Source: Spizellomyces punctatus DAOM BR117 (taxonomy: Eukaryota). Taken from it: a stretch of DNA of 64,000 nucleotides. A program made the position numbers and the translations under genes. The notes beneath the pieces were generated by a model. The model was not told where the DNA came from. It searched no databases and saw nothing but the letters and a program-made list of their open reading frames with translations. The stretch lies in NCBI GenBank assembly GCA_000182565.2, contig KQ257453.1. One strand, written 5' to 3'. Shown here piece by piece: positions 43,887-62,448 of the stretch (the stretch's first letter is position 1; each line of letters opens with the position of its first letter).

Positions 43887-43916
43887 TAGTGTAGAGGTGA
43901 CAGAAACTGGCACTAG
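43887..43916. repeat. Solo terminal inverted repeat identical to the omegaRNA-side end of the element at 60815-61561
   Basis: TAGTGTAGAGGTGACAGAAACTGGCACTAG is identical to 60815-60844 (30/30). No partner TIR seen nearby. Confidence 0.9.
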
Positions 43917-59225: not shown

Positions 59226-60774
59226 CTACTCGTCACTTTTGTTTTCTCTATCTACAGCTGCTAGTCTTGACTGAGCCACCTCGATCAGAACTTCTATGTG
59301 CTCTATCTGTTCGAAAACGGACTTGAGCTCCCCCTGCGCCCCTCTCTGACGAGTCTTCAAGTCCGCTAATTCCTTTTTGCGCTCTTGCATGATTTTATGT
59401 TGTTCTTCAATTTCAGCCTAGAGGTAAAAAATAGCATTCAGACTCCATTCGAGGACTTTTGCTTGTTCTCACTAGACACATTACATTGATCTTCCTCATT
59501 TCTGGTGATTCTTTTGGTTGATATATGTCGGCCAGATCCTCACTCTCCAGCAGCGTTTGATAAAAATCTGGCTGCAAATTGTGTTTCTTTGAGTGCCCCG
59601 ACCAATTAAGATGAATCATCGCCGTGCACCTACATTGGCTTCGAATTTTGTAAGCAGCTCTTTGAAGACGTCTTCGTCTGCAGCCTTTTCATGCATCCAC
59701 TTATCTACCGACGCCCACCTATCCTTTGAGCGTAGTAGCTGCATCTGCTTGTCGCTGAATACGTCCGACGATACATTTTGAACAAAAGATCGACCTAGTG
59801 TTGTCAGAAACTTTGTTTCCTCCTCTTCGCAGGTTTTCTTCAATCTACACCAGTAGTAGTGAAATTCCGCTCCATATATCAAAAACTAGAACATACTCAG
59901 CATTTTCCTTCTCGATCATCTGTTTTCGAAAAGTAAGGTTGACCAACAGCGACCTAAGATGGTCGAATTCCTCCTCGCTTCCGTTTTCGCACATTAGCTT
60001 TTGGCACTTTGACCGGAGATAGACTTTTTCCTGTACTATATTGAGCAGTGCGGCAATGCACAAGTCATACTCGCGCTGAAAAATGGGTGCGACTCATGAG
60101 AAGGTACTTTGGGTCCTTGAAGCAGTGAGAATATCCACCTTGATGTCCGCCAGAATTGGCCTATAGTTGCGAAATTGCGCAATAACCCGATCATAGATTT
60201 GCTGGAGGCATTCAATCCTATACGGATCTAGCAAGTTGCTTTCGAACCTGCGCAGGGTTTGTAGGTCATCCTGATACTTTGCTACTAGTAGGTCAGGTTG
60301 TTGGGGACATCTTTCCACAGTTGGGTCGGAAGCCAGCCACGCTTTCAGATGATATGGCAGAGAACGGAGATGAAAGCATGGTTGGGTATCATTGCGCACG
60401 GAAAAGTGTGTTGCACCATTCAAGGTCATGATACTACTAGTGATGGAAATACGCAGATGGATCGGAGATTTTCTTATTGTGCACACCAATATTGCTCAAT
60501 TCACGCATATATAAATAAACCACCATTTTCTACTGACATGGCCAAGATCTAATCATGATATTGGCGGATTCATCTGGCAAGATGTCACTTTCTTTGCGTC
60601 CAAGCCATTCCACAATGGGCTATAGCAAAAGTTCTGCAGGACCATACGGGTGAACTCTCTCACCACACCGGACGTGTCATTACATAAATATCATCTGCAC
60701 GAGCACATCATGTAGCTCCGTATCTCGCATGGGTACCAGGAATACCTTTGGCAAAAAAGGTCATTGGTGGTCAT
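59226..60774 (-). CDS. TSNAXIP1 N-terminal-domain-like coiled-coil protein
   Basis: RIECLQQIYDRVIAQFRNYRPILADIKREYD resembles the TSNAXIP1_N motif. Multiple exons. Putative ATG at 60774; ends approximate. Confidence 0.6.
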
Positions 60775-60799
60775 CGTTCAAGTGTAAAGCCCTCCAGGC

Positions 60800-60887
60800 G
60801 GAAGTGACAAAAGTTAGTGTAGAGGTGACAGAAACTGGCACTAGCTACTACACCAGGGAATAAACCGGCGACAACCGGTTTGGAAAA
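60800..60887 (-). ncRNA. Putative Fanzor omegaRNA: scaffold 60887-60815 plus ~15-nt guide 60814-60800
   Basis: Minus strand reads TTTTCC-AAACCGG-TTGTCG-CCGGTTT-ATTCC-CTGG-TGTAG-TAGCTAGTG-CCAG-TTTCTGTCACCT-CTACACTA, then guide ACTTTTGTCACTTCC. It has a perfect 7-bp hairpin, a GTGTAG/CTACAC stem and a possible CTGG/CCAG pseudoknot. Resembles the SpuFz1 omegaRNA as I recall it. Confidence 0.8.
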
Positions 60888-61561
60888 GCTAACTAAGCTA
60901 CTACTAGGCAATTATACACGCAATACGTAACGGTTGGTTCTAACCGGATAATTGCCCACCACCACAGGCGGTCCCTACTAGGCCTTGATCTGGAACTCTT
61001 GATGGCATTGAAGCCAGACTCTTGCATCCAGGAGCGAATCGACTGGGCAGCGTCACAAGCCAGAGGATGTTCAGTGACAAGGCTTGGAGACTAAAACTGC
61101 ATGTCAGCGACAGAATAATATGAAAAGAGATGATGCCATTGGTACATACCAACCAAGCTCAACTAATGTGGCAGCATAATAGTAGGTTTTGTTATCAGAT
61201 CTGATTGGTTGCCGCTGGTTCTGATCACGGTTGCTGTCGGGCGGTCGAGGTCCTCGGCACCAGAGCAGTATTCTCATGATTGGACTGAGACTTGTTGGGC
61301 GGATGCTTTGAGTCGAGGATGGGTAAAGAGGAAAGAGGGAAGAGGGAGCAGGTCCCCCTTTTATAGACCTTTGGCATGCGCCTCACCGCAGTTTAAAAAA
61401 AAAGCTACATTAGCATGCCACACCGCAGTTTGGAGAACATTAGCATCCATGCCTCCTCACCGCTTTGAGCAATGATGGGGGTTCTGATTATGCGATATGA
61501 CTAACCGGATTAATCCGGATAATAATGGGTCCTAGTGCCATTTTCAATCACCTCCACACTA
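60815..61561 (-). mobile_element. Non-autonomous TIR element, Fanzor 'ghost'-type (Spu-1-like), with no nuclease ORF
   Basis: 28-bp imperfect TIRs (60817-60844 and 61532-61559, 24/28 match). TA on both sides (60815-16, 61560-61). CATA on the minus strand at 61563-61560. OmegaRNA-like structure at the other end. Confidence 0.88.
61359..61365 (-). promoter_or_regulatory. TATA box inside the TIR element
   Basis: TATAAAA on the minus strand, followed by a pyrimidine-rich tract and an ATG at 61277, oriented toward the omegaRNA end. Confidence 0.5.
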
Positions 61562-61890
61562 TGGACATCACGTCACTGGCACAGTCACACTACAATACAT
61601 GACTATGCCGTCATTACACTCAAACCGGAATATGAGAAAGATTTGAACCGTGCAGATTTGCACGAGGGGCTGACGTCTTCACACCTTCAAATATCGAACC
61701 CCCGCTCTCGCCCCCCCATCTTTTCCCATCATCTTTTGCTCATCGCAAGCAGTACGTTGCAATCTTTTGCGCACTCCAACATTATCAGTGTTTTTTAAAG
61801 GTATGGAAGCGCGTGTGTCCTTGGGATTTTATTCTGGTTTGTTGTTGGAGACTCTGCTAACACGGTGTTTAGAATCTATCCTCATCTAGT

Positions 61891-62448
61891 ATGGCTAACC
61901 AAAGCAAACCTCAAGCTGCCGGCGGTATCTCCGCCTTGGTCCAATCGGCTAGCGGCCGTGTGCTTCCCCTTATCAGCACTGCTCAGTCCTATGCCATTGC
62001 TACCCTCTCAACATCCAAGGCCATCCTCGACCGGTACCCCCCGCTCAAGGTTTGTGTGCCGTAGTGGTCCTTGTTTTGTTAAGTCACTTGGACTGATCAA
62101 TTCCCCGTGAAATTCTGCCAGGCCTTTGTGTACACTCTTGGTGGTGCCGCCGCTGTACCTCTCGCTGTCTTCACAGGTTACGGTGCTGCCACTGGCGCTG
62201 TCGTCCTCGGTGTCGCCGGAACCGCTGTAACCTTTGTACAAGGCGGTTTCCTCGCATTTGGAGGATTCATTCTCTTCTGGTTCTTGGCAGGAGCTTTCGT
62301 TCTCGCCTCGATCTTGACTTTCTGGTAAGGGTCGGCAATAAGTTACATGACATTCTACGAGAGCTTATCGTGCTCCCTTTCCTTTTATAGGTTCACATTG
62401 GCCTACTTCGCCTTCCAAGTCGCCAAACGCCTTGAGGGCACTGCTTAA
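61891..62448 (+). CDS. Promethin/LDAF1-like lipid-droplet membrane protein
   Basis: Long uninterrupted Gly/Ala-rich hydrophobic stretch AVPLAVFTGYGAATGAVVLGVAGTAVTFVQGGFLAFGGFILFWFL. Multi-exon, stop at 62446-62448. Confidence 0.65.

Follow-up and report, generated by a model that had tools for sequence, protein, structure and literature searches.

Does a short, well-folded stretch of a fungal chromosome correspond to the gene of a guide RNA and, if so, to which element does it belong and which protein would make use of it? These questions are raised by positions 60800..60889 of 64,000 nucleotides of Spizellomyces punctatus DAOM BR117 (assembly GCA_000182565.2, contig KQ257453.1), a stretch referred to here, at its full length, as the window. 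A preliminary description, made from the letters of the window, had recognized there a variant of the omegaRNA scaffold of SpuFz1, and had proposed that it represented a distinct omegaRNA subfamily, still under selection and possibly at the service of a different Fanzor paralog. The evidence set out below leads us to read the stretch, with a probability of about 0.93, as the omegaRNA gene at the right end of a ghost Spu-1 element, a non-autonomous Fanzor1 transposon of S. punctatus DAOM BR117. The subfamily is indeed distinct, and it is not new: ghost omegaRNAs were described in 2023, and the class, this locus and the exact scaffold are all already in print, in such a way that the rediscovery is correct and, as a discovery, the ghost omegaRNA at 60815..60889 adds nothing, its relatives having already been tried as scaffolds for genome editing.

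The element and its ends

The window is part of an ordinary eukaryotic chromosome, in which the domains recognized by Pfam include those of an SRP54-type GTPase, a TCP-1/cpn60 chaperonin, a copper transporter and PAXNEB; the host genes on either side of the element, SPPG_02507 and SPPG_02506, are divergent (Table 1). Its two 30-nt terminal repeats enclose 687 nt; by eye, the left one shows no difference from its counterpart in another published ghost record, and just outside the left repeat of the window's element, on the minus strand, stand the C at 61563 and the A at 61562. Three places in the window match a degenerate pattern of the terminal repeat, the expectation from 100 shuffles being 0.00, and these are both ends of the element and one solitary copy, with no others; a search for repeats within the window at seed 14 and a minimum length of 40 found none.

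Table 1. Coordinates of the ghost element, its parts and the associated transcript features, in positions of the window
Feature	Position	Strand	Basis or remark
Ghost Spu-1 element (non-autonomous) in full, 747 bp	60815..61561	-	terminal repeats; published 'end' features; contig depth
Right-end inverted repeat, 30 nt	60815..60844	-	repeat search
Left-end inverted repeat, 30 nt	61532..61561	+	26/30 complementary to the right-end repeat
CA immediately beyond the left end	61562..61563	-	with the first TA of the repeat gives CATA, the SpuFz1 TAM
omegaRNA scaffold (right end of the element), 75 nt	60815..60889	-	equal to gst69; fold z = -4.21
Stem 1 hairpin, scaffold 9-28, 8 pairs, 4-nt loop	60862..60881	-	predicted fold
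Stem 2, scaffold 35-75: 8 pairs, 2 pairs, 3-nt bulge, distal hairpin	60815..60855	-	predicted fold
15-nt flank directly 3′ of the scaffold, presumed guide	60800..60814	-	position, according to the 14-15-nt extension of the SpuFz1 omegaRNA
Intron, 59 nt, GTATGT ... CTGAC ... TAG	61091..61149	-	sequence; RefSeq mRNA join; spliced contigs
First exon of the annotated SPPG_02506 mRNA, with its start inside the element	61150..61376	-	feature table of the published record

No Fanzor ORF is found inside the element, where the longest stop-to-stop frame has 102 aa and where 747 bp would in any case be too short for a protein of 638 aa. None of seven frames of the element passes the Pfam cut-off, the best being a sub-threshold NinE (PF05322, E = 0.023), and neither Pfam nor the other scans of the window found a Fanzor-like protein in its 64 kb. 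The 15-nt flank is unique in the window, where it has one exact match and four others with two or three mismatches, a number not above chance; its position is what suggests that it would act as the guide.

A solitary right-end repeat is also present at 43887-43916 on the minus strand, identical to 60815-60844 over 30 nt; nothing else of the scaffold remains there, no left-end partner exists within 1-2 kb, and it is a truncated ghost remnant.

The multiplicity of the element is visible in sequencing runs, for which both the RNA and the copy data consist of assembled contigs only, contigs being unable to reveal RNA ends. In run X1 (organism A) the flanks are covered without differences at a depth of about 3.9, by contigs of 1388 and 1439 nt; the contigs of the unique flanks end at 60843 and 61537, inside the repeats, the summed contig depth inside the element is 41-565, and multi-copy depth extends across 60805-61583, all of which fits a multi-copy repeat with boundaries at 60815-61561.

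Ghost-like sequence without the flanks of this locus (60805-61260) was also observed at very high contig depth in a run of 2011 with another organism code (X10), as well as in RNA-seq runs of root metagenomes (X9); relatives of the element occur, then, outside the set of runs that holds this locus.

Identity with a published locus

In S. punctatus DAOM BR117, Saito et al. (2023, Nature; PMC10432273) report 42 loci where a Fanzor gene is present, in full or in part, together with 134 ghost Spu-1 elements, which carry both 30-nt repeats and no Fz ORF and are defined by a CA upstream of the left repeat and by a 75-nt right end resembling the SpuFz1 omegaRNA. The element of the window is one of their records, NW_015971540.73 in Supplementary Data 2 (NW_015971540:184815-185561), whose 'end' features, at 185561-185532 and 184844-184815, span 747 bp. 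Record position p corresponds to window position 62027 - p, and by eye the sequence of the record matches the window through the element and both flanks, including the 15-nt right flank; 3 of 3 peptides of the neighbouring downstream ORF are likewise present in that supplement.

With the published ghost Spu-1 elements, the element at 60815-61561 shares the 30-nt repeats, the CA motif, the absence of an Fz ORF, the internal sequence (a conserved region that a by-eye comparison with published records shows to be common to other ghost loci) and the 75-nt scaffold with a 3-nt bulge, and in nothing does it differ in kind. As regards length, its 747 bp exceed the 'around 550 nt plus repeats' in the text of Saito et al. 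(2023), but two other published records have 608 and 734 bp.

The scaffold too has been catalogued. The list of 126 'ghost scaffolds', gst1-126, drawn up by Chen et al. (2026, Nat Commun; PMC13434818) contains that of the window as gst69, at 75 of 75 positions (by eye; their Supplementary Data 1), an entry absent from passages of that paper that name tested scaffolds. A full-text search of the literature with a scaffold string found no paper, and an Rfam search of the window gave no family match. A scan of metagenomes with the conserved core motif returned three loci, the surroundings of which are unlike the scaffold, and which look like chance matches in coding DNA.

The composition of the catalogue deserves an observation apart. 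By eye, 68/126 entries are the 75 nt outward from a left end and not right-end omegaRNAs, and the left end of the element in the window (61487-61561, plus strand) is itself entered as gst11 and gst37; these left-end entries probably explain the 'distinct second clade' and the lower editing of gst7, gst73 and gst98 described in the text of Chen et al. (2026). A third type, with 13 entries (gst1, 8, 16, 24, 45, 48, 55, 56, 62, 68, 94, 120 and 123), has a terminal repeat ending in CCACCTGCACACTA and unrelated upstream sequence, and may correspond to the ends of another Spu element family. About half of the published catalogue of 'ghost scaffolds', in short, appears to be left-end sequence and not omegaRNA.

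Fold of the scaffold

All the strings that the preliminary description had named are present in the window where it had placed them. AAACCGG (60862-60868) lies opposite CCGGTTT (60875-60881), and GTGTAG (60817-60822) opposite CTACAC (60848-60853), in such a way that in the predicted fold scaffold positions 9-16 pair with 21-28 to form stem 1 (window 60881-60862), and 35-42 with 68-75 to form the outer part of stem 2. The predicted fold of 60889..60815 (minus strand) has an energy of -23.0 kcal/mol against a shuffle mean of -13.2 (z = -4.21), and 0 of 200 shuffles folded as well as the 75-nt scaffold. No excess structure appeared in two controls of 75 nt, one running outward from the left end (z = +0.28) and the other ending at the solitary repeat at 43887 (z = +1.49). 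In the copy at 60815..60889 all the scaffold pairs of the predicted fold are intact, and its predicted 3-nt bulge agrees with the 'stem 2 with a 3-nt bulge' that the text of Saito et al. (2023) attributes to ghost scaffolds.

One of the proposed elements of the fold did not survive. CTGG (60835-60838) and CCAG (60853-60856) had been considered suited to a pseudoknot, which would join scaffold positions 34-37 and 52-55; because bases 35-37 are already held by stem 2, this complementarity represents a competing hairpin and not a pseudoknot, and the solved canonical complex (PDB 8GKH, cited in Saito et al., 2023) is described there as being without one (legend of Extended Data Fig. 10). The RNA had also been expected to end about 15 nt beyond 60815, and this matches the native transcripts of Fz loci, which run 14-15 nt past the scaffold as a guide and are associated with a CATA TAM (Saito et al., 2023).

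Transcription, the intron and a modelled leader of the host gene

According to the RefSeq model, the mRNA of the neighbouring gene SPPG_02506 starts at 61376, within the element, loses 61149-61091, and continues in a second exon that covers the omegaRNA, crosses the right end and reaches the ATG of the coding sequence at 60429. The intron thus removed has standard signals, GTATGT, a CTGAC situated 13 nt before its end, and TAG, and its exact 59-nt skip, with 61090 joined to 61150, is present in contigs of runs X18 (with a side of 45), X9 (21) and X10 (26), the short sides in the latter two calling for some caution; it is absent from the contigs of X1, the run that covers the flanks of this locus. 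The same exon junction is found in two RefSeq proteins from other ghost copies, and again in the model of the exportin CRM1 gene SPPG_07821, which starts in another ghost copy. Saito et al. (2023) use the word 'intron' 0 times in their main text, and 'splic' and 'promoter' only in a reference title and in relation to expression vectors, respectively; a full-text search combining ghost, Fanzor and Spizellomyces returned that paper alone, and the point of a ghost intron or of a host leader was not found in its main text.

A small protein encoded by the element was considered and discarded, as three copies run in three different frames past the splice junction and no Pfam family passes the cut-off. 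In the copy of the window the spliced frame would encode 92 aa; the RefSeq products of other copies have 80 aa (SPPG_09412) and 105 aa (SPPG_08830). These two 'uncharacterized proteins' (compare window 60943-61277, minus strand) are alike in their first 42 aa and are probably not real proteins.

Also inside the element, a TATAAAAG motif occurs at 61365-61358 (minus strand), which is at most a putative promoter, as the mRNA is annotated to start at 61376, already 11 nt upstream of it.

The RNA cover belongs to the family of elements. In run X18 (organism A, guessed to be RNA) it is limited to 60837-61262, and the sole contig over the scaffold (60837-60924) has three differences from the window, and therefore comes from another copy. 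In run X9 (RNA-seq of a root metagenome) a contig of 262 nt lies on 60815-61060 with 5 differences and extends 18 nt past the right end into another flank, so that an RNA library contains read-through past the right end of some ghost copy. No contig runs from the scaffold into this locus's own guide, and the cover of X18 and X9 is at family level; neither run has cover at 60600-60804 or over the left part of the element, uncovered parts proving nothing. Contig depth cannot rank the parts of a gene, and the differences in depth along the element in X18 and X10 were accordingly left unused.

It could be supposed from the gene models that the element is above all a domesticated promoter and leader, that is, the start and the 5′ untranslated exons of SPPG_02506, and that its hairpins are mere structures of that leader. 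The annotated path from 61376 through the splice to the ATG is what such a reading would expect, and exportin CRM1 is modelled alike at another ghost copy; however, the models may fuse the element's own transcript with that of the host gene, and no RNA-labelled cover reaches 60600-60804, though here the missing cover counts neither for nor against. As the principal explanation it seems rather unlikely to us, and a leader of this kind would in any event be compatible with omegaRNA function.

Pairing among the copies

If 60800..60889 is the omegaRNA gene of a ghost element, the way in which its pairs vary among the copies becomes of interest. The comparison was made over the 38 right-end-type entries of gst1-126, sorted and counted by eye. 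The claim that the differences from the canonical scaffold preserve pairing is borne out in stem 2, where the canonical C-G at pair 40-70 and G-C at pair 41-69 give way in the window to T-A and A-T, changed on both sides, and where gst22 has the wobbles T.G and G.T, between the canonical and the ghost states. In stem 1, pair 14-23 (window 60876/60867) can be scored in 36/38 entries and is G-C in 27, A-T in 6, G.T in 1 and A.C in 2; 1.6 double changes would be expected if the two sides were independent, and the Fisher p = 9.5e-5 ignores relatedness and is inflated by related copies. In contigs of other copies the changes 60876 C>T and 60867 G>A are found together (1 + 1 in X18; 3 + 3 in X1, at equal depth).

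Pair 9-28 is G.T in most copies, G-C in gst2, gst28 and the canonical scaffold, and A-T in gst85 and in the copy of the window, where G.U has become A-U through the G-to-A change of scaffold position 9 (60881), and thus this copy's own change improves a pair; all 17 contigs of X1 that differ at 60881 have the majority base. Within the family, on the other hand, the variation of stem 2 is mostly disruptive, with single-sided mismatches in six entries (gst25, 36, 65, 105, 113 and 114) and an insertion in three (gst9, 99 and 112), from which it follows that individual ghost copies decay. Moreover, every one of the changes that preserve pairing is a CpG transition, and such mutations are frequent. 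Compared in this way, the sequences read as those of a structure that would have been maintained in the copies that spread, and would afterwards have undergone neutral decay.

Could the copy in the window be no more than one of these decaying remnants, neutral, resembling an omegaRNA by its youth alone and giving no RNA that a Fanzor uses? No copy-specific RNA was seen among the contigs, the catalogue contains other copies with truncations and disruptions of stem 2, and the solitary repeat at 43887-43916 is an instance of such debris within the window itself. And yet this copy retains both repeats, the CA motif and every pair of the scaffold, its one private change keeps the pairing, RefSeq models a transcript across it, and scaffolds nearly identical to it are active in the experiments of Saito et al. 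(2023) and Chen et al. (2026). An inert relic is therefore an unlikely description of it.

Relation to the canonical omegaRNA and to other systems

The canonical SpuFz1 omegaRNA is the right end of the full-length Spu-1, and its scaffold is given, together with those of Ghost1-4, in a supplementary table of Saito et al. (2023). The motifs that the preliminary description had attributed to it were correct: GTGCGG/CCGCAC, CCGGTTGTCGC, CCCTGGTG, GCTAGTGCCA and a terminal CACTA are all found in the canonical scaffold of that table. A comparison by eye with published Spu omegaRNAs gives the full identity with gst69 and an identity of 56/74 aligned positions with the canonical scaffold, which upholds the distinctness of the ghost form; from Ghost4, which has been tested, the scaffold of the window differs at 2 positions. 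The ghost and canonical forms have in common the place at the right end, stem 1, the CCCTGGTG and GCTAGTGCCA blocks, the terminal CACTA, a guide derived from the flank, and the CATA TAM. In contrast with the canonical form, the ghost has no upstream Fanzor gene, two pairs of its stem 2 are changed on both sides, and it has an additional base near the 5′ end and lacks one in the loop of stem 1; in the distal part of stem 2, a 3-nt bulge, which in the ghost is a predicted form, stands against the 8-nt hairpin loop of the canonical scaffold (Saito et al., 2023).

Four ghost scaffolds combined with SpuFz1 in human cells gave indel rates comparable to those of improved canonical scaffolds (Saito et al., 2023), and further ones are active with engineered SpuFz1 (Chen et al., 2026). 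That the variant scaffold should serve a Fanzor paralog other than SpuFz1, as had been suggested, and as the differences from the canonical scaffold at 8/14 positions of the distal half of stem 2 (by eye) and the seven differing positions between ghost and Fz-locus repeats (Saito et al., 2023) might lead one to suppose, is very improbable, as well as unneeded, given that ghost scaffolds function with SpuFz1 itself, that a single Fz family is reported in the genome, with 42 loci and proteins about 82% identical (Saito et al., 2023), and that no Fanzor gene was found in the 64-kb window.

Outside the Fanzor systems, two likenesses may be pointed out. MITE-like non-autonomous DNA transposons are short and multi-copy, have terminal inverted repeats and no protein of their own, and depend on factors acting in trans; the ghost element differs from them in keeping a guide-RNA gene that looks functional, beyond mere ends for the binding of a transposase. 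In bacteria, the omegaRNA (reRNA) of TnpB in the IS200/IS605 elements, such as ISDra2, comes from the right end of the transposon and takes its guide from the flank, and the TAM equals the sequence beside the left end. Compared with it, the ghost form is found in a eukaryotic host, apart from its nuclease gene and inside a spliced transcript, and is without the pseudoknot, to judge by the description of the Fanzor omegaRNA in Saito et al. (2023).

A possible mechanism

If the right-end reading is accepted, the activity of this particular copy could have the following steps, which we infer from the arrangement of the locus and from what is published on its relatives. The element would be transcribed on the minus strand, within a spliced transcript that leaves through the right end; from that transcript an RNA of about 90 nt would be cut, consisting of the 75-nt scaffold and the 15-nt flank as a guide; the SpuFz1 produced by full-length Spu-1 copies elsewhere in the genome would bind this ghost RNA in trans; and finally, the complex would cut the CATA followed by the match of the guide. 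The sequence of the empty site is the CA from outside the left end, TA, and then the right flank, in other words the target would be the site without the element, and thus the copy could be restored by repair from the filled allele. For the bacterial TnpB a role in homing and retention has been proposed, and the step of cleavage and restoration would, by analogy, fit such a role. The Discussion of Saito et al. (2023) already suggests that ghost guides may widen the targeting of Fz in trans, and states that no transposase is known for Spu-1.

Meaning for the biology of the fungus

Going beyond the single locus, it is possible, and is put forward here tentatively, that the ghosts are spliced units with an intron of their own, the read-through of which would provide SpuFz1 with more than 100 guides throughout the genome, and that the same transcripts would form the first exons of host genes such as SPPG_02506 and exportin CRM1. 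The production of guides and the expression of the host genes would then be coupled, the omegaRNA being cut from the leader of an mRNA. It is in this sense that the intron and the 5′ exons modelled in the ghost elements bear on the native production of omegaRNA in the fungus.
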